From positions 1 through 64,000 of IMG/VR virus record IMGVR_UViG_3300021478_000216: a DNA stretch of 64,000 nt, one strand, 5' to 3'. Below, piece by piece: positions 2,812-62,282 of the stretch. The position numbers were made by a program, and so were the translations under genes. How positions within the stretch are numbered: position 1 is the stretch's first letter; each line of letters opens with the position of its first letter. Source of the DNA: a virus. The notes below the pieces were generated by a model, which worked only from the letters and a program-made list of their open reading frames with translations, searched no databases and had not been told where the DNA came from.

Positions 2812-3001
2812 ATCCTGAAGGACTATTAGTAGCTAGCTGTGCCTTAGCGGTCTCTGCAGCTGCGACACCGTTTAGGGCCCCGAGGGTCGATTCTGCCGTG
2901 GTCTTAGCCTTAAGGCGCACTGTCCAGACCTCGTTCGAGTCTTCTAGGTATTCGAGGACTTCGACTCGAAAGGTCCTCTTAATTCCGTCACCGTCAGGCA
3001 T
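2798..3001 (-). CDS. hypothetical protein
   Basis: Tightly packed in the minus-strand operon. Confidence 0.55.
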   Translation of the reverse strand: MPDGDGIKRTFRVEVLEYLEDSNEVWTVRLKAKTTAESTLGALNGVAAAETAKAQLATNSPSGYVPE

Positions 3002-3165
3002 TATCGAGTCTCCAGTCCGTATTCTCTTAGTAGGTCGTCTAGTGCGTCTTCGAGGTCGGCGCGAAGGTCGTCTATGAGACCATAGATCTCGGATGGTTTA
3101 GCACGTTCGACTGAGTCCTCGAAGTCTCTGAGGAGCGTGTCGATCTTCGGGATCCTTACTGACAC
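3001..3165 (-). CDS. small acidic helical protein (54 aa)
   Basis: Hand translation from GTG 3165: MSVRIPKIDTLLRDFEDSVERAKPSEIYGLIDDLRADLEDALDDLLREYGLETR; fills the gap between track ORFs. Confidence 0.6.
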   Translation of the reverse strand: MSVRIPKIDTLLRDFEDSVERAKPSEIYGLIDDLRADLEDALDDLLREYGLETR

Positions 3166-4120: not shown

Positions 4121-4906
4121 TTATGAGATGGCGTAGAACGCTGTAGGTGACCAGCTTCCGCCGTAGGAGTGGAATCCTACTGACGTACCTGGTTGTTGTG
4201 CTCCGAAGGTCTCGCCCGGCTTAACGTACAGCTCGACATGACCAGAGCCAAAGAAGGCTAGGTCGCCAGGCTGTGGATTACTCGTCGGGACTAGGAGTCC
4301 CGATGATGTGCCCTGTCCTAGCATCGAGTAGGTATCCCTAGGCATGTTAGATATTCCGATCTGCAGTGCGGACCAGTAAACTAGTCCTGAACAGTCGAAA
4401 CCTCCTGGAGATGCTCCGCCGTAGACGTACGGGACGCCCTGCTGAGTCTCAGCTTCTGCTAGAAGCCTGCTAGCTAGTGACCCGTTAGTCGGTGGAGGAG
4501 CGTAAGTATATGTGACGGTCGGAGTAGGAGTCGGAGCTGCTGGCGCCGTATACGTCGGAGATCCTGACGGTCTCGGCGTATACCTCGGCGTGCTGCTTTT
4601 ATGCGTAGCCGCAGTATGCGTGATCGTCGGTTGAGCTGGCTGGGCGAATTCATCTGACAGCAGTTTCCGGATCTCTTGCTGAGAGTAGGACGGTACCTGA
4701 GCTGCTGTTGCTTGCGACTTAGGCTTATGGACGATCATGTCTGCTGCTTGTGCAGGAGATGAGCTGCCGAAGCTGACTATTGCCCAAGTAGCTAGGCTTG
4801 TAAAGGTAGTGACGATGACTAGGGCGCCTGTAAGCAGGCGGCGTTGCCGCCGACGACAGTGAGGACACGGTCGCCGGCGGTTCCGCCTGCTGCTATTAGC
4901 AGCCAT
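4121..4906 (-). CDS. secreted NlpC/P60 peptidoglycan endopeptidase
   Basis: GVPYVYGGASPGGFDCSGLV, PGDLAFF, GHVELY; signal peptide and Pro/Thr linker. Confidence 0.9.
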   Translation of the reverse strand: MAANSSRRNRRRPCPHCRRRQRRLLTGALVIVTTFTSLATWAIVSFGSSSPAQAADMIVHKPKSQATAAQVPSYSQQEIRKLLSDEFAQPAQPTITHTAATHKSSTPRYTPRPSGSPTYTAPAAPTPTPTVTYTYAPPPTNGSLASRLLAEAETQQGVPYVYGGASPGGFDCSGLVYWSALQIGISNMPRDTYSMLGQGTSSGLLVPTSNPQPGDLAFFGSGHVELYVKPGETFGAQQPGTSVGFHSYGGSWSPTAFYAIS

Positions 4907-5453
4907 CGTACGGGGTCCACGGGGAGTAGCCCCAGAGCTTGACCGCTGCCCAGAAGATCGAGGTCTGGTAGGAGGCGGAAGCGTTCCCGAAGAGGGCTCG
5001 GCTGCCTCCAGCGGCGACCCAGGTGGAGAAGCTGAACTGGTAGAGACCGTAGTGACCGGTCGAGTTCATGACCTGGGCGTTGCCGCCAGACTCGCGCGCG
5101 ATAATGCATGCCTGCATGGCGTTGCTAGGCGTTATCGGGTGCGTTAGCGCTGTAGTCAGCACAGCTGCGGTGGTCGCTTTGCTGCACTTGAACGTCAGGC
5201 GCTGACCTGAGAGGATCAGGTTCGGGCTACTTCCGATGACTGCCCGGTCCTGGCTGTAGATAGAAGACCAGCTGCTTGAGTTACCGCACATCTTCTGCGC
5301 GATCCCTGACAGTGTGTCTCCTGGTTGAACTGTGTAGTGGTAAGTTACAGCTGATGCTGCGAGTGCAGCGCCGACGGCTGCCAATCGGAGTGTAGTCCTG
5401 CGTTTTGATCGCCTGTGGACGATGCTGTCGAAGATTCGATCGATGAAACTCAT
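4896..5453 (-). CDS. LysM + Rpf-like lytic transglycosylase
   Basis: YTVQPGDTLSGIA...PNLILSGQRL (LysM); CIIARESGGN...GLYQFSFSTW...PW (Rpf/transglycosylase). Confidence 0.88.
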   Translation of the reverse strand: MSFIDRIFDSIVHRRSKRRTTLRLAAVGAALAASAVTYHYTVQPGDTLSGIAQKMCGNSSSWSSIYSQDRAVIGSSPNLILSGQRLTFKCSKATTAAVLTTALTHPITPSNAMQACIIARESGGNAQVMNSTGHYGLYQFSFSTWVAAGGSRALFGNASASYQTSIFWAAVKLWGYSPWTPYDGC

Positions 5454-39331: not shown

Positions 39332-40390
39332 ATGGGTGTTATACCAGCGTTCGATGCAACATCCGCAAACTACGGAGCACTGCCTCCAGGGCAACGGTGC
39401 GCCTACGTTACAGGAACTCCAGACATCCTGTGGACTACTGCAGAGCTAGTTGCTAACCCTGGGGTCGTCCTAATCGCTCAGGCAGTCGGGCTCGCAATCG
39501 ACGAGAGTCCGTTTCCTGACATCCTGGACGTAGAAGGCGGAGCAGCCACCTATGCAGACTGTGGGCCTTGGGCCATCGCGATGCAGGCAGCTTTCTCAAC
39601 TGACAAGAGGCCAGGACAGCGTAGACCTGCTATCTACTGTTCGGCTAGTAATGTCTCGAACATCGTCAACGCTCTTGTAGCTGCAGGAGTTACGAGTCAT
39701 GTCGGGCTGTGGATCGCGAACTGGAACCTAAGCGACGCACAGGCGGTCGTAGAGGTTCTTACGGCGTCTGGTCCGTTCCCAATTATCGCTATCCAGTTCA
39801 GTGCACTAGGGGGCGGAGGCTCCTATGACCTGGATGTCTTCTCAACGTCATGGCTAGCGGACCAGTCAGGCGTCGCAGGAGACCTAGTGTCGCAAGGCTC
39901 TTCGGGCCCTGCAGTCGTCGCTCTTCAGACAGCTCTCAACACCTGGATCTCGCCGAAGATAGCCATCGATGGCTTGTTCGGCCGAGAAACCTTGAAGGCG
40001 ACTGAAGAGTTCCAAACGGATAAGCATCTCACGGTCGACGGTATAGCAGGTCCTGCAACCTGGAAGGCTCTTGAGCCTTCGGCGCCCGACCCCACTCCTG
40101 TTCCGACGCCATCGTCTGCTCCAGGAGGTCTGAAGCAGACTGTTAGGTCGGCGGCTTCTGAAGCTATCTTCTCATGGCAGGCTGTTGCAGGAGTAGCTCT
40201 GACAGAAGGTTACCACTTGCAGGTTGAGTGGGAGAAGTCAGGCTTCGGGTGGGTCCTGTCGTTCGACGTCACAGTTAAGGCGCTAACGCAATTGGTAGCG
40301 CTAGCGCCGCGAACGACTTACAGATGGAGAGTGGCGGCAAATACTACAGACCACATCTGGTCTAGCTGGGTCCAGTTCGTTACGACCTAG
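39332..40390 (+). CDS. endolysin (GH25-like muramidase + PG-binding + FN3-like)
   Basis: LDVEGG, RPAIYCS, LWIANW, YDLDVF; GSSGPAVVALQ...DGLFG...DGIAGPATW; YRWRV. Confidence 0.85.
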   Translation: MGVIPAFDATSANYGALPPGQRCAYVTGTPDILWTTAELVANPGVVLIAQAVGLAIDESPFPDILDVEGGAATYADCGPWAIAMQAAFSTDKRPGQRRPAIYCSASNVSNIVNALVAAGVTSHVGLWIANWNLSDAQAVVEVLTASGPFPIIAIQFSALGGGGSYDLDVFSTSWLADQSGVAGDLVSQGSSGPAVVALQTALNTWISPKIAIDGLFGRETLKATEEFQTDKHLTVDGIAGPATWKALEPSAPDPTPVPTPSSAPGGLKQTVRSAASEAIFSWQAVAGVALTEGYHLQVEWEKSGFGWVLSFDVTVKALTQLVALAPRTTYRWRVAANTTDHIWSSWVQFVTT

Positions 40391-47194: not shown

Positions 47195-47315
47195 TGAAGA
47201 TGTAGGCGGTAGGTCGGTCCAGTCGCATTCTCACGGGTACCATCTTCTGGTCTTGTACTACCCCGCTAAACCGTGTGCTGCCTACTCTTACCTCGCGACG
47301 TGGCCTACATCTTCA
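47195..47315 (-). ncRNA. candidate structured RNA closed by a 13-bp perfect helix
   Basis: TGAAGATGTAGGC / GCCTACATCTTCA encloses ~95 nt with internal complementarity; fills the intergenic gap. Confidence 0.5.
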
Positions 47316-58720: not shown

Positions 58721-58838
58721 GGCTCTCCCCTTCCTTCGCCGGAGTGCTTTAGCATGTAACCGAGGAAGATAACGAATACTAGGAGGACTAGAACACAGGC
58801 TCCGCAGATGGCTATAAAGAGCCAGAAGTACCAGGGCA

Positions 58839-59207
58839 TCAAGCGCCTCCCAAGGTTTCGACTTTGACAAGCTGTCGGCGTCGTTGCGCTTCTACCGTGG
58901 TCTCGACACCTAGGAACCCATAGGCGTCCTTTTCTTCCTTGGTCAGTAGGTTGGCCCAATCAAACAAGGCCTCTTCGCAGACATGACGCCACAACGAGGG
59001 GTTCGCGCTGCAGTGTGCACACACTATAGACTCGTTGAGGTGCATGAAGACTTTAAGGTTCTCTACGTGTACCTCTTCGAGTGGAACTGTAATTGTTACA
59101 GGTCCGGTGCTAGTGAAGGGAGCCTTTGAGGTTTGGTGACTATACCGGAACCCTCTAGGAGAGAGCGGCGATATCTCGAAGAAAGGCTCTGGAAAGCACT
59201 CACCCAT
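58839..59207 (-). CDS. hypothetical protein with CxxC...HxC
   Basis: CAHC...RHVC. Confidence 0.5.
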   Translation of the reverse strand: MGECFPEPFFEISPLSPRGFRYSHQTSKAPFTSTGPVTITVPLEEVHVENLKVFMHLNESIVCAHCSANPSLWRHVCEEALFDWANLLTKEEKDAYGFLGVETTVEAQRRRQLVKVETLGGA

Positions 59208-59359
59208 TAGACGTCGTCATCCATTTCAGGATGATCGCACAGAGCTTCGACCAGATCGTGTAGCCAGTTATGCATTGCTAACACCTCCCGATTATTTCGT
59301 ATTTAGTATTTGGATTACTGGCCTATAGTTGAAAAGAACCTGGCTGTTTACTGAATTGC

Positions 59360-59740
59360 TTATACGGCTTCTTCTAGGAGTTCTTCCAGGCGCGCTTCGA
59401 GTATTTCAACGCGAGACTCCAAATCCGTGATACGTTCCTGTTGCGCCATCCATCGCTGACCACCCTGAGCAAAGGCTGCACGCGTCGGAGGCTTAATGAC
59501 TAGCCACTCGCTGGGGATCCCGCGGCCTCCACGGATCTTCTGCTGTATGCAACCCATGGTTCGAAGTCTGCGCATAACCGGAGTGTAAATGCTGATCGAA
59601 TAACCGCACTGCTCAAGAAGGTAGGTCGTGTAGCCACGATAGATAGCAACTCCGTCAACTCGACTCTGAGCGGCTTCGTTCATGGCGTCGTAGACCTTGC
59701 AGCACTGCTCGTACAGACGAGCGTCAACAGCTGTAGGCAT
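59360..59740 (-). CDS. winged-helix-like protein with C-terminal coiled coil
   Basis: YTPVMRRLRTMGCIQQKIRGG; ITDLESRVEILEARL; GAGGAG RBS. Confidence 0.65.
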   Translation of the reverse strand: MPTAVDARLYEQCCKVYDAMNEAAQSRVDGVAIYRGYTTYLLEQCGYSISIYTPVMRRLRTMGCIQQKIRGGRGIPSEWLVIKPPTRAAFAQGGQRWMAQQERITDLESRVEILEARLEELLEEAV

Positions 59741-59759
59741 TACCGCTCCTCTCTTACGT

Positions 59760-60652
59760 CACACTGCTCAGGTATTCTGTGAGGTACATTAAGCCTGCAC
59801 ATCCAGCAACCTTCGGTTGGCCTGGGAGCACCTCCCTCTGCACCGCCACGCATGAACAGGATCAGCAGAGCAGGACCGGCTTGCCTTTTCGCGATCGACC
59901 ATCCATAGGAGGTGCTCCCAGGGTTATGACCGGGCTGCCAGCTGTCCACATTACGCATCTGGCAGCCCGGTGATTGAGTCGCCGGCTCGATACTAGCGCA
60001 CGTGAAGGCGTGCTCTCGACTTCGGACCTTACTCAAGGGTCCTCGAGGTTGAGTATTCCTGCCGGCTACGATTGTAGATCCCGGGAGGGCTGAGCCGCTC
60101 TTGGTCTCGTCAGGGGGAAGACGGACGCACGCCGCCGGGCCGGCGCAATGCCTAGGTTGGACCTGACCTTCGTATCCTCTTGTGTGTGCCCCATTTACGG
60201 ATAGTCGACCTAGGAAGGCTCTGCAGCAGAGTCGTACTGCAGAGCCTCGAGCCGAAACCTGGATTCGAACCAGTGCGTTGCGATCCGAGCGCAAACTCGG
60301 TGCTGACGTCCGACTACGTCGTCTCGGCACGACGAAGGGGACACCAGAGGTGTGGTTCAGCATAGAACGGATGTTCAAATTCATCCCACCGCTCAGCCTG
60401 CGCTTCACCTGCGTTGTCCCCTCCGTCTTTCGTCCGACTTTCGGTTCCTTTAGTCTCAAGGCATCTTGGGTTGTCCCTTGAGCCTTGGAACCTAGTAGCT
60501 GGACGCTTGGGTCCTGCTCGGGCGTGTGGTCGTCATCTGGGAGCTCCCAGACGGATCGTTGCCACTTCCCCGAGCAGGACGTTTAGTCCTGTTCGGTCGT
60601 GTCGAGCTCGCAGGTTGATCAATCCTACCCGCCGCATCCTACCGAACAGGAC
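59760..60652 (-). ncRNA. ~900-nt array of helix-closed structured RNA modules
   Basis: Abutting inverted repeats at 60586-60652, 60511-60580, 60431-60505, 60331-60427, 60251-60328, 60217-60246, 60151-60214, 60061-60144, 59929-59971 and 59821-59922; G-U wobbles favour the minus strand. Confidence 0.72.
60251..60328 (-). ncRNA. non-canonical tRNA-like element
   Basis: GCCGAGAC/GTTTCGGC acceptor, GACGT/ACGTC D-like arm, CCGAG-TTTGCG-CTCGG arm, CTGG-TTCGAAT-CCAG T arm; no CCA; 6-nt anticodon-position loop. Confidence 0.6.
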
Positions 60653-60654
60653 GT

Positions 60655-61260
60655 CTATTCGGCCTCGTCGAAATCTTCGTCTGCCGCAAGGTCCTCGACC
60701 GCAGCAGCGTCCTCGAGATCCGGGTCCTCAGCGGCGTCAGCAGCTTCGCCTTCCGGCTTCGCCTTAGGCTGACCAGGCTGGCGCTTCGGGCGATCCTTCC
60801 ACCACTTGAGGGCGTCTTCCTCGACGAGACCGGGCCGCGTGAGCGTCTCGTTGGTGACGGAGTGTGTCTGGATCTCGTCGAACATGTTGCCGGCCTTGTC
60901 GAAGTGCTTGACAGGCATGCCGTTGGATGCCGACTTGCGTACCAGTCCGTAGACCTGCACAGGGCTCATGCTCTCGCCTGCCAGCCCGAGCTCCACCAGC
61001 TTGTGCCGGAAGGCTACAGGGGAGATGTAGCCTTCGGGGAGATCAGGCTTGCGCCTCTCCGGCTTGTCCTTCGCCTTCTTTGACTTGGTCGCCGCGGCCA
61101 GCTGCTCCTCGAGCTCGACGATTCGAGCCTTCAGCTCATCGACGGTCGGCTCGGCCTCGGTAGCTTCGTCTGTTACGAAGTCGGTCTCGGTCATCTCGGT
61201 TGTCCCTTCTTGCTCGTCCGCCGACACAGGCTGTTGAGCGGCTCTACGCCTGCTTGCCAT
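60655..61260 (-). CDS. putative nucleic-acid-binding protein with acidic termini
   Basis: Coiled coil, K/R patch, ISPVAF...SPVQVYGLVRK HTH-like core; strongly GC3-biased codons; first gene after a strong promoter. Confidence 0.7.
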   Translation of the reverse strand: MASRRRAAQQPVSADEQEGTTEMTETDFVTDEATEAEPTVDELKARIVELEEQLAAATKSKKAKDKPERRKPDLPEGYISPVAFRHKLVELGLAGESMSPVQVYGLVRKSASNGMPVKHFDKAGNMFDEIQTHSVTNETLTRPGLVEEDALKWWKDRPKRQPGQPKAKPEGEAADAAEDPDLEDAAAVEDLAADEDFDEAE

Positions 61261-61310
61261 GATCAGCTCCTGTTGTCCCTAGTCAGCTCCACATTTCTGC
61301 GTATACTAAT

Positions 61311-61348
61311 ATTATAGCTGTAGCCTCAAGGCGCTTGCAAGAGGCTAC
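61311..61348 (-). promoter_or_regulatory. leftward promoter TTGCAA-18-TATAAT bracketed by a GTAGCCTC/GAGGCTAC inverted repeat
   Basis: Read directly; 8-bp inverted repeat at 61320-61327 and 61341-61348. Confidence 0.8.
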
Positions 61349-61390
61349 TGAGGGGAAAAATTCTTGAATTTTCGCGGACTGTGTTTGTGA

Positions 61391-61801
61391 CTAGAGTACA
61401 GCGATAATTACGGCCATAATTATAACCAAGACTATTATCACATTGATAGACTCTTGAGCAGTCAGCTGCTGTGGTGGTCGCTTCTTGACTGGAGCCTGCT
61501 TAGGCTCCTTGACGGCTACTGTAGTGATAGGCTCTGCGTACAGGTCAGTCATTCGGTCCTTGGCGTAAGCGTGTCCTGTCCTGATAAACTCACTGCGCCA
61601 CCAGTCATAGGTCTGTACTATGTTGACCTTATGCAAGTCCTCGTAGATCGCGTCCGTCGTGGTCCACACAGGACAGTTACTGCATACCTTCAGAGAACCG
61701 TTTTCAGGCCGAACTATACGACAGGTGTAGTTCGAACTTGGGCCGTGTCGATAGTTCTGGCAAGTGCCTCGGAACTTATCCTGATCTACTTCGATAGTCA
61801 T
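61391..61801 (-). CDS. Cys-containing protein with C-terminal TM anchor
   Basis: C..H..C..CxxC; hydrophobic tail. Confidence 0.6.
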   Translation of the reverse strand: MTIEVDQDKFRGTCQNYRHGPSSNYTCRIVRPENGSLKVCSNCPVWTTTDAIYEDLHKVNIVQTYDWWRSEFIRTGHAYAKDRMTDLYAEPITTVAVKEPKQAPVKKRPPQQLTAQESINVIIVLVIIMAVIIAVL

Positions 61802-62121
61802 GACTCATCATCGGTCTCTTCCCGCTCGAACTTGAGCAGGACGTAGGTATTGCCTGGCTGAAGGTGTCGAGATTCGTTGTTCACTTTGACCTCCAGCGGG
61901 TTCTTTGCACTATTTGGAACGGCTATAGTAGAAGCTGTCACATGGAGTCCTCGGACACGTGCAGTACGTCGCGCTAGGAGTACGAAGCTTTCAGCCATGC
62001 ACCGGAAGTCCTTCTTCTCAACTAGGAGACGCTCCGTACCATCAGTCCACTCGTTCCAAGGGTAGGCTGGTGGACGACCTAGACGGACAGTGCGGTCTTC
62101 GTTCGGGTAGTAGTTAGTCAT
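61798..62121 (-). CDS. small putative DNA-binding protein ('YxWxxxTDG' family)
   Basis: GRPPAYPWNEWTDG...KDF..ESF...ARRTARVRG. Confidence 0.7.
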   Translation of the reverse strand: MTNYYPNEDRTVRLGRPPAYPWNEWTDGTERLLVEKKDFRCMAESFVLLARRTARVRGLHVTASTIAVPNSAKNPLEVKVNNESRHLQPGNTYVLLKFEREETDDES

Positions 62122-62138
62122 TAGTTGTTCCTTCCTTT

Positions 62139-62282
62139 GTAGATACCCTCAAGGCCCTGTTCAGCACCCAGAACTGAACAGGACTTTCAAGGCAACTACC
62201 GTAGTTACCTCAAGGCCCTGCCCGAGCCGCCTCGTAAGGCGTTCCCGCGCCGTACGGCTCGGACAGGACGTTCAGGCGACTA
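62139..62282 (-). promoter_or_regulatory. two tandem GUCCUG...CAGGGC stem-loops (RNase III-like candidates)
   Basis: 62202-62282 and 62139-62199; both read AA[CA]GTCCTGT...CAGGGCCTTGAGG with outer stems. Confidence 0.62.

Follow-up and report, generated by a model that had tools for sequence, protein, structure and literature searches.

What fills the 914 nucleotides (nt) that separate two conserved genes in an operon of a soil phage: a coding sequence, a structured RNA, or both at once? The question is raised by a locus in a stretch of 64,000 nt (64 kb), which is part of the 78,994-bp IMG/VR virus record IMGVR_UViG_3300021478_000216; "the window" means the whole of this stretch, at its full length. 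A preliminary description, made from the letters alone, had singled out the gap between the genes of a 201-amino-acid (aa) protein and a 126-aa protein as an array of structured RNA modules. We find a genuine structured RNA in this gap, referred to below as the array: it is conserved, is built of modules and lies on the gene strand. The reading that we favour, and that we hold with middling confidence, is that this RNA is transcribed in an early phage operon, and that what selection mainly preserves is the RNA fold, not a protein. The three features needed to follow the argument are these.

60655-61260, minus strand: gene of the 201-aa protein, the first of the operon, with 17 homologues
59741-60654, minus strand: structured gap of 914 nt (the array), recognised by folding, covariation and synteny
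59360-59740, minus strand: gene of the conserved 126-aa protein, directly 3' of the array

The array begins 1 nt past the stop codon of the 201-aa gene and terminates at the ATG of the 126-aa gene, in agreement with the preliminary description, which had it start right after the stop of the former and end at the next gene. All the genes that surround the array are on the minus strand of the window, and so is the array.

Fold, modules and covariation of the array

The relatives for which DNA is available are loci from IMG/VR and from JGI metagenomes. Together with the window they make up five DNA lineages, on which the analysis of covariation is based, while other lineages (P0005-P0012 and P0021-P0023) are known as proteins only. 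In every locus the gap is flanked by homologues of the same two genes, and its length ranges from 457 to 1029 nt over the five lineages: it is 1029 nt in L001 (matched by the copies L002, L006, L007, L009 and L010), 933 nt in L011, 707 nt in L014 and 457 nt in L008. The region 59300-61400 has no blastn match among 50,697 phage records. Scans of IMG/VR for the DNA patterns of two motifs of the array (those of modules M4 and M11, listed below) return only the three contigs already found, a search of genome contigs with the profile of the 126-aa protein reveals no prophage copy, and a full-text search of the literature yields no description of such an array.

The minimum free energy (MFE) of the 914-nt gap is -414.6 kcal/mol, against -346.7 ± 9.4 kcal/mol for dinucleotide shuffles (z = -7.2). 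When the region is scanned in 200-nt windows, the array gives z-scores of -3 to -6.4 and the flanking genes values near 0. Local folding, with a limit of 135 nt on the span of a pair, resolves the array into 12 closed units of 34-108 nt, separated by linkers of 0-15 nt, mostly of 0-9 nt. The earlier picture of modules closed by stems is thus borne out, and all three helices that were quoted in its favour were located. From 5' to 3', the units are as follows.

M1, 60586-60652, minus strand: hairpin with a 12-bp GUCCUG...CAGGAC stem; the interiors of M1 and M2 are variable and measure 43-46 nt
M2, 60511-60580, minus strand: hairpin with a 12-bp GUCCUG...CAGGAC stem; the inner helix is compensatory, CUGGGAGCUCCCAG here against CUAGGAGCUCCUAG in L001
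M3, 60431-60505, minus strand: branched unit of 75 nt closed by CGUCC/GGACG, present in the window, L001 and L011, with five double-sided pairs
M4, 60331-60427, minus strand: 97 nt with a 13-bp stem, present in the window, L001, L011 and L014
M5, 60249-60330, minus strand: tRNA-like unit with an 8-bp acceptor-like stem, a D-like hairpin, a 10-nt insert and a T-arm
M6, 60215-60248, minus strand: 34-nt hairpin
M7, 60152-60214, minus strand: unit closed by CCUAGGU/ACCUAGG
M8, 60067-60151, minus strand: unit with a conserved CCCGG...CCGGGAyC helix, whose core is recognisable in all five lineages
M9, 59981-60066, minus strand: three-way junction closed by GCCGGC, with an H-type pseudoknot ACUCAA:UUGAGU
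M10, 59929-59971, minus strand: 43-nt hairpin with a 13-bp stem ACCGGGCTGCCAG/CTGGCAGCCCGGT, with a homologue in L008
M11, 59821-59922, minus strand: 102-nt module, better conserved than any other, in which a 16-bp helix encloses inner helices
M12, 59741-59819, minus strand: weaker 3' structures that contain the Shine-Dalgarno (SD) sequence of the 126-aa gene (GAGAGGAG)

The 5' part of the array consists of one to four GUCC...GGAC hairpins with unrelated interiors, and its 3' part is a conserved core. M11 and the core of M8 are found in the five lineages; M4 and M9 are found in four (not in L008), and so is M10, in the place of which L014 has a different hairpin; M3, M7 and M12 are confined to the three close lineages (the window, L001 and L011). 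The shuffling of modules between relatives, proposed beforehand as a check, does occur, in that modules are seen to be gained, lost and swapped. The array does not contain head-to-tail copies of one unit, such as those of type III antitoxins of the ToxI type or of CRISPR arrays: Tandem Repeats Finder detects only an 11-nt unit present twice, and the families of direct repeats amount to two pairs of 19-20 nt with 75-84% identity.

The other proposed check, covariation across homologous loci, gave a positive answer. The local consensus structure of the alignment of the three close lineages (alignment A5) contains 221 pairs and is 96.4% paired. Double-sided changes affect 25 of these pairs, compared to 9.0 ± 2.4 after column shuffling (none of 500 shuffles reaches the observed value) and to at most 4 when the partners are slid by 1-3 columns. 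Between 12 and 17% of the paired columns vary, against 28-38% of the unpaired columns, which makes the former change 2.3-fold more slowly; the codon position matters little.

The same signal is seen in individual modules. The covariance model of M11 matches all five lineages (122, 118.5 and 114.8 bits, then 90.4 bits in L014 and 37.4 bits in L008); the five-row alignment based on this model has 36 pairs, is 98.3% paired and shows 12 compensatory pairs against 4.4 ± 1.5 in shuffles (0/500). In the window, its helix CCTGGGAGCACCTCC/GGAGGTGCTCCCAGG (59821-59835/59908-59922) is 15 nt long and 100% complementary, and the module also contains the palindromic tracts CGAUCG and UCGCGA. M9 has 29 pairs in four lineages, with 96.5% pairing and three compensatory pairs, compared to none in the slid controls; its pseudoknot includes one covarying pair, A-U becoming G-C in L014. 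Four of the 11 pairs of M6 are compensatory over three sequences (UGCAG/CUGCA, CGUCG/CGACG and CGCAU/AUGCG). M4 is enclosed (60331-60427) by the helix GACGGAGGGGACA/TGTCCCCTTCGTC and has 24 of its 32 pairs invariant and 3 compensatory. The invariant 5' strand of its stem, GGGGACAACGCAGGUGAAGCG, carries an SD-like GGGGA and a GUG codon (60408), which lie within the invariant 21-mer of M4. RNAalifold also proposes a long-range pairing between M3 and M12, CGUCCAGC:GCUGGAUG, whose sequence is invariant.

Several observations single out the gene strand as the structured one. The MFE of the sense strand (minus in the window) is below that of the antisense strand in all five lineages (most clearly in L014, with -324.2 against -294.3 kcal/mol, and in L008 -233.0 against -194.0 kcal/mol). 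The U-G wobbles of M10 (CUGUCAG/CUGGCGG, in L001 and L011) can pair on the sense strand only. The arrays of the five lineages contain six T-arms, defined as stems of four or more base pairs that are closed by G-C and carry a UUCRANN loop; all six are on the sense strand and none is on the antisense strand. The whole 79-kb genome has only two, both strands included. The only other T-arm-like hairpin of that genome is at 39650-39664 (minus strand; GAUG-UUCGAGA-CAUU).

The cloverleaf that the preliminary description had seen in the array is confirmed as a tRNA-like unit, M5 (60249-60330), which remains below the thresholds of tRNA models. Its T-arm, CUGG-UUCGAAU-CCAG, has a 4-bp T-stem, and its D-like hairpin is closed by GACGU/ACGUC in the window and by GACAC/GUGUC in L001. 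Two mutually exclusive helices can form in the middle of the unit. One is the MFE hairpin, CCGAG/CUCGG, which is invariant; the other is an anticodon-like arm, UUGCG-CUCGGAU-CGCAA, whose loop of 7 nt includes positions like U33 and A37. This arm shows two compensatory changes in L001 (ACGCG/CGUGU), and its stability is lower than that of the MFE helix by about 6 kcal/mol. Between the window and L001, compensatory changes are found in the acceptor, D-like and anticodon-like stems. The 10-nt insert between the D-like hairpin and the anticodon-like arm makes the unit non-canonical, and we treat it as a tRNA mimic, not as a tRNA.

This type of unit is common to the window and L001; in its place L011, L014 and L008 hold a non-homologous T-arm module. 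Every lineage thus has a T-arm with a UUCRANY loop, closed by G-C and stacked on an acceptor-like stem. The loops, all on the sense strand, read UUCGAAU (window and L001), UUCGAGA (L011 and L014), UUCGAGG (L008) and UUCAAGU (first module of L011). We considered that the array might be a decayed tRNA array, and dropped the idea: the helices are actively maintained, and there are only one or two tRNA-like units per lineage.

No catalogued RNA family accounts for the array. At the gathering score, Rfam 15 has no match in the whole window, and at E ≤ 10 the only match in 59300-61400 is that of the tRNA-Sec model to M5 (21.1 bits for a gathering score of 47, E = 0.46). ARAGORN predicts no tRNA gene in the window or in four relatives, and cmscan of the relatives' loci against Rfam gives nothing relevant. 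GOLLD (RF02032) has no match at E ≤ 10 in the 79-kb record, in 59300-61400 or in the relatives' loci. The same holds at E ≤ 10 for ROOL (RF03087), for which the direct search is weak alone, the control genomes being empty too, and is covered by the cmscan of the locus. YrlA (RF02553) has no match at E ≤ 10 either. The comparison with Rfam suggested in the preliminary description (GOLLD, ROOL, Y RNA, tmRNA) therefore places the array outside these models. Group I and group II introns, riboswitches, retron non-coding RNAs and tmRNA were dropped as candidates on the basis of the lack of Rfam matches and of any reverse transcriptase or exon context. The only match of group-II-D1D4-1 (RF01998), with E = 1.5 at 40200-40317, is irrelevant.

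Structure is also seen elsewhere on the minus strand. A lone module at 47195-47315, in which a perfect helix of 13 bp encloses 95 nt, has the design of the array modules, with no obvious sequence similarity to them; the surrounding 171 nt fold with -48.8 kcal/mol. Strongly structured 200-nt windows are found at 4801-5000 (z = -7.25, with an inverted repeat at 4833-4891) and within 1501-1800 (z = -4.7 to -4.8), the background median being -0.58 over the first 29 kb.

The open frame through the array

Is the array also a gene? The preliminary description held that 59760-60652 contains no credible coding sequence, and this does not hold in that form. One sense frame is free of stops from position 73 to position 912 of the array, that is over 280 codons (the three sense frames contain 3, 15 and 11 stops), a length that none of 2000 dinucleotide shuffles reaches (P < 0.0005). 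The frame is open in all the relatives. The open frames, with their probabilities with respect to shuffles, are as follows.

Window, 59740-60408, minus strand: 222-codon open frame that threads M4-M12 and whose stop overlaps the next ATG (UAAUG)
L001: 252 codons, P = 0.0025
L011: 258 codons, P = 0.0005
L014: 182 codons, P = 0.011
L008: 151 codons, which is the entire array, P = 0.025

Gene callers predict this open reading frame (ORF) in six lineages (P0018-P0023), and in four of them (P0018, P0019, P0020 and P0023) the called start is the GUG of M4 (60408). The motif GGGGA-N8-GUG is invariant wherever M4 exists, and both GGGGA and GUG are paired in the M4 stem. The UAAUG overlap of the stop with the start of the 126-aa gene is found in the three close lineages.

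The product behaves very differently from the frame. In three pairs of lineages, the substitutions at the three codon positions number 48/51/64, 47/56/73 and 46/42/50, compared to 17/10/40 and 7/3/31 in the neighbouring genes, and the ratio of non-synonymous to synonymous substitution rates (dN/dS) is 0.55-0.77 against 0.08-0.34 in the flanking genes. The synonymous share of the changed codons is 0.23-0.28 in the frame, compared to 0.15-0.23 when the other sense frames are read and to 0.44-0.75 for the neighbours. The GC contents at the three codon positions are 0.60/0.60/0.58, compared to 0.59/0.47/0.57 in the genes of the phage, and the codon log-odds of 0.013 is below the 5th percentile (0.075) of these genes. 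Within M11, the frame of the window, L001 and L011 divides the conserved nucleotides into UCG AUC, and that of L014 and P0021-P0023 into CGA UCG; the reading frame thus differs between lineages, so that the peptide encoded there is not homologous although the RNA is. The model that AlphaFold2 gives for the product, from a shallow alignment of seven sequences, has no secondary structure, with a predicted local distance difference test score (pLDDT) of 41.6 and a predicted template modelling score of 0.10. The product, which has an isoelectric point (pI) of 11.25 and 13% Arg, matches nothing in Pfam or PHROG.

The openness of the frame is therefore selected, and the sequence of its product barely is. 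The preliminary description had named a 239-aa ORF, translated and conserved at the level of the protein, among the findings that would refute its reading. What is conserved is the open frame itself, with its SD-like motif and GUG wherever M4 exists; conservation at the level of the protein is contradicted by the dN/dS values, the even codon positions, the change of frame in M11 and the low pLDDT.

Operon context, transcription and recurrent hairpins

The transcription unit that contains the array is preceded by the following element.

61340-61311, minus strand: sigma-70-like promoter TTGCAA-18-TATAAT, with 10 of 12 consensus matches in the scan and an A/T-rich block upstream

In the five lineages the two hexamers (-35 and -10) keep their position, as does the GAAAATTCAAGAATTTTT block that precedes them, and the near-consensus promoter reported at first is confirmed. 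The order of genes 3' of the 126-aa gene is a 122-aa gene, then a SNF2-type helicase.

This stretch or close relatives occur in soil and wetland sequencing runs; no weight is given here to the parts that the runs leave uncovered, or to the small word shares of runs X2-X8. In a wetland metatranscriptome, a relative with less than 90% identity is represented by two contigs, one over 59594-60157 at a depth of 14.7, the other over 60242-61284 at a depth of 32.3. The latter spans the 201-aa gene and part of the array, and its end at 61284 is some 20 nt past the expected start site. Such contigs from RNA libraries are a weak hint that the array is transcribed. A soil metatranscriptome contains one contig of 182 nt that is 100% identical to 60159-60340 (M5, M6 and most of M7); it could be a stable processed fragment or an accident of assembly.

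The 201-aa protein has homologues that are all unannotated metagenome proteins, none of which has a Pfam domain. Its sequence comprises a disordered N-terminus, a coiled helix, a winged-helix core (residues 76-160 approximately) and an acidic tail, EDFxEAE. AlphaFold2 models residues 70-160 with a pLDDT of about 90. The best structural matches of the core are the DNA-binding domains of excisionase (Xis), BldC and MerR; they are weak (Z = 3.7-5.1) and share one theme, and a Foldseek search with the model returns nothing at E ≤ 0.001. This likeness to Xis, BldC and MerR winged helices points to DNA binding rather than RNA binding. The earlier assignment of the protein as helix-turn-helix-like is thus weakly supported, in the form of a resemblance to winged helices of the Xis/MerR type at Z 4-5 only. 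The dN/dS of the gene is 0.18-0.34. The C-terminus of the protein (60655-60700) and those of P0002-P0016 share an acidic (E/D)(D/G)F-x-EAE tail after a low-complexity linker, which recalls the protein-docking tails of SSB-type proteins.

The 126-aa protein is 65-92% identical in the five lineages, with a dN/dS of about 0.1, and has no sequence match in Pfam, PHROG or the PDB; searches of PDB sequences with both flanking proteins gave nothing meaningful. The sole lead comes from a language model, which matches the protein to HTH_36/DnaD_N/RepL with scores that stay under 0.9. The protein is possibly a winged helix followed by a C-terminal coiled coil.

The hairpins at the 5' end of the array belong to a wider family. 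The window has two copies of the GUCCUG hairpin in the array, L001 four (one of which is a CCCUG variant), L011 three, and L014 and L012 at least one each. The base of the M1/M2 stem recurs outside the array, at 282-335, 62154-62184 and 62215-62269, all on the minus strand and in intercistronic gaps within operons of that strand: the hairpins in 62154-62269 come directly after the stop of a 364-aa gene, and that at 282-335 lies just upstream of the next start. Their equivalents in relatives are at 2979-3033 and 3064-3094 in L006, 1354-1404 and 1867-1940 in L014, and 1329-1416 and 1787-1854 in L008. Both the flanks and the base of the stem are conserved in this family (CCUGAAC-GUCCUG ... CAGGGC-CUUGAGGG, including a fixed U-G wobble), and the distal stems vary yet stay complementary. 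The hairpins are not followed by a U-tract, and a terminator scan of 58800-62200 found no terminator.

Both of the units that the preliminary description credited with a GUCCUG handle are therefore there, without being a special cargo: the occurrence of the same hairpin between other genes shows that the "handle" is an intercistronic signal used throughout the phage. We infer that it is a signal for processing, stabilisation or (factor-dependent) termination, and the family is a candidate binding site of a phage factor.

Known phage RNAs and competing explanations

The closest likeness is with the large ornate RNAs GOLLD and ROOL. In GOLLD the 3' region is conserved and the 5' region variable, and a tRNA-type element is present (10.1101/2024.12.08.627333). 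Like GOLLD and ROOL, the array is borne by a phage, measures 0.5-1 kb, is densely helical with pseudoknots and contains tRNA-type elements; as in GOLLD, one part (M8-M11) is conserved in the five lineages and the 5' part is variable, a resemblance that concerns the layout only. Unlike them, it lies within an mRNA, between protein genes and not in a tRNA island, its modules are individually closed by stems and vary between relatives, and it is threaded by a conserved open frame.

Three other systems offer partial parallels. Phage T4 species 1 and 2 (RNA C and D) are stable small RNAs that are co-transcribed with the phage tRNA cluster. There, as here, non-decoding structured RNAs and tRNA-shaped units would share one phage precursor, the processing of which by host tRNA enzymes is presumed; the array differs in that its phage has no detectable true tRNA, its units have closing stems of 10-16 bp, and an open frame is present. 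YrlA, in which a tRNA-like domain is carried on a long stem and bound by Ro60/Rsr, belongs to the Y RNAs, which can stand in tandem. The array too has long stems that carry a T-arm domain, for example in the first module of L011 (a 13-bp stem and a GUCGG-UUCAAGU-CCGAC T-arm). Unlike YrlA, it has no recognised bulged Ro-binding helix and no match to the YrlA model, and there is no TROVE/Ro60 gene (PF05731, no match at E ≤ 1) in the 79-kb record, which is 85% complete. Last, the early operon of phage T7 carries intercistronic RNase III hairpins. The GUCCUG hairpins are like them in that they come right after stops in operons, with long stems, mismatched extended flanks and no U-tract; they differ in that the sequence motif is unrelated and that the copies in the array are in tandem, with large variable interiors.

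On the reading that we favour, the one to four GUCCUG hairpins that come straight after the stop of the 201-aa gene would form the intercistronic signal, and they are followed by a core consisting of a stem that masks an SD (M4), a tRNA-like unit with its T-arm (M5), a pseudoknotted junction (M9) and the universal 102-nt M11. The frame runs from the GGGGA and GUG buried in M4 across all the core modules to the start of the 126-aa gene, with a peptide that drifts near-neutrally. The modules would act as RNAs, the T-arm/acceptor-like unit may be a handle for the host RNase P/Z or for tRNA-binding proteins, and ribosomes could cross the segment when M4 opens. Selection for openness, with hardly any on the product, is most simply explained if ribosomes travel through the array, at least on occasion, and if early stops are detrimental to the operon. 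The reason that we propose is that a stop would break the coupling of translation to the genes downstream, which are of a replication type.

Several observations weigh against this reading. The 126-aa gene has a strong SD of its own and does not obviously depend on translational coupling. For two of the three pairs of lineages there is a weak in-frame synonymous excess (0.27-0.28, compared to 0.15-0.19 when the other sense frames are read), which is lacking for the third pair (0.23 against 0.21-0.23), and third codon positions vary about 1.3 times more; given this coding-like excess, the frame may encode a weakly constrained basic protein. The RNAalifold energy of the three-sequence alignment (-266.0 on the sense strand, -268.6 on the antisense strand) does not discriminate between strands. 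The statistics of covariation depend on few events, because there are only five DNA lineages, three of which are close, and the alignment of M11 was fitted to its own model, which favours structure. The contigs from RNA libraries give no ends, strand or level, and they may come from DNA carry-over.

Among the other explanations, it is unlikely that the array is, as the preliminary description proposed first, a polycistronic precursor, from which cleavage at its long stems and tRNA-like unit would release about 12 stable small RNAs that would act in trans as decoys or mimics, for instance against tRNA-targeting or RNA-binding defence proteins. Closed units separated by short linkers are what such a precursor should look like, and so are modules that are independently gained, lost and exchanged between lineages; T-arm-bearing units, one of which is present in every lineage, are the kind of structure that RNases P and Z recognise, perfect stems of 11-16 bp, which the array has, are the size of RNase III substrates, and the 182-nt contig from soil is a weak hint in the same direction. 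Yet efficient cutting would leave nothing to select a frame of 222 codons, which is kept open across all the cuts, no ends, small RNAs or targets were seen, and no defence-related gene is linked to the array. Another candidate is one large RNA of the GOLLD/ROOL type, made of the core M4-M11 (about 0.6 kb), which would be a single entity in its folding and perhaps in its multimerisation, and which might have tRNA-like cargo or partners. The conserved 3' part, variable 5' part and internal tRNA-type element, the pseudoknot and multi-way junctions, the palindromic tracts of M11 and the pairing proposed between M3 and M12, though it is invariant, all fit. We consider this quite unlikely, however: the GOLLD and ROOL models find no match, no covarying contact between modules was found, the composition of the supposed unit changes between lineages (L008 lacks M9, and L014 lacks M7, M10 and M12 or has others in their place), and the segment is inside an mRNA and threaded by an ORF, unlike the stand-alone genes of GOLLD and ROOL.

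A further candidate is a plain gene for a fast-evolving, basic, disordered protein of 222 aa, for example an Arg-rich nucleic-acid binder, with the RNA structure being secondary. The frame is indeed open in all lineages, its SD-like motif and GUG are conserved, it ends in the UAAUG overlap, gene callers predict it, the slight synonymous excess is in frame, and the pI and Arg content are those of a basic protein. This is nevertheless very unlikely. Substitutions are nearly even over the codon positions, the high dN/dS, the flat GC contents and the low codon log-odds are at odds with a gene, identical nucleotides of M11 are read in different frames, the tRNA-like stretch is swapped for a non-homologous one between lineages, the predicted structure is poor, no Pfam or PHROG family is matched, and such a gene would leave unexplained the 25 compensatory pairs and the slow change of paired columns. 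That the element acts as DNA or as a primer, either a replication origin or a structured primer transcript like RNA II of ColE1 that would serve the adjacent replication-type genes, is highly improbable. The position just upstream of the SNF2 helicase and of a candidate DnaD_N/RepL-like winged helix (which is a lead only), the many inverted repeats and the fact that both strands of the window fold well are compatible with it; there are no iterons and no AT-rich unwinding tract, the direct repeats are trivial, the GC content is 0.59-0.66, and the G-U wobbles, the T-arms and the lower energies of the sense folds in the five lineages are specific to one strand.

The large phage RNAs of the GOLLD/ROOL type rank with the most poorly understood RNAs, and only a handful of classes is known. 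The present candidate combines clear covariation, a defined promoter, fixed gene neighbours and a tRNA-like handle that varies between relatives. It is also a warning for annotation: in no fewer than six metagenomic lineages, this RNA appears in the output of gene callers as a hypothetical protein.

Going further, we may be dealing with a new class of phage RNA, ornate, modular, tRNA-mimicking, 0.5-1 kb in length, located in an early operon and kept translatable, in which ribosome passage, gated by the SD-masking M4, would switch the transcript between an mRNA bridge to the replication genes and folded RNA effectors, such as decoys for tRNA-directed defences or for tRNA-processing enzymes; we put this forward tentatively, as an idea that is unlikely to be right. 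The pairing of a selected fold with a selected, apparently meaningless open frame is rare, and it raises a question that can be tested: whether translation through a structured RNA regulates the RNA, the downstream genes, or both.

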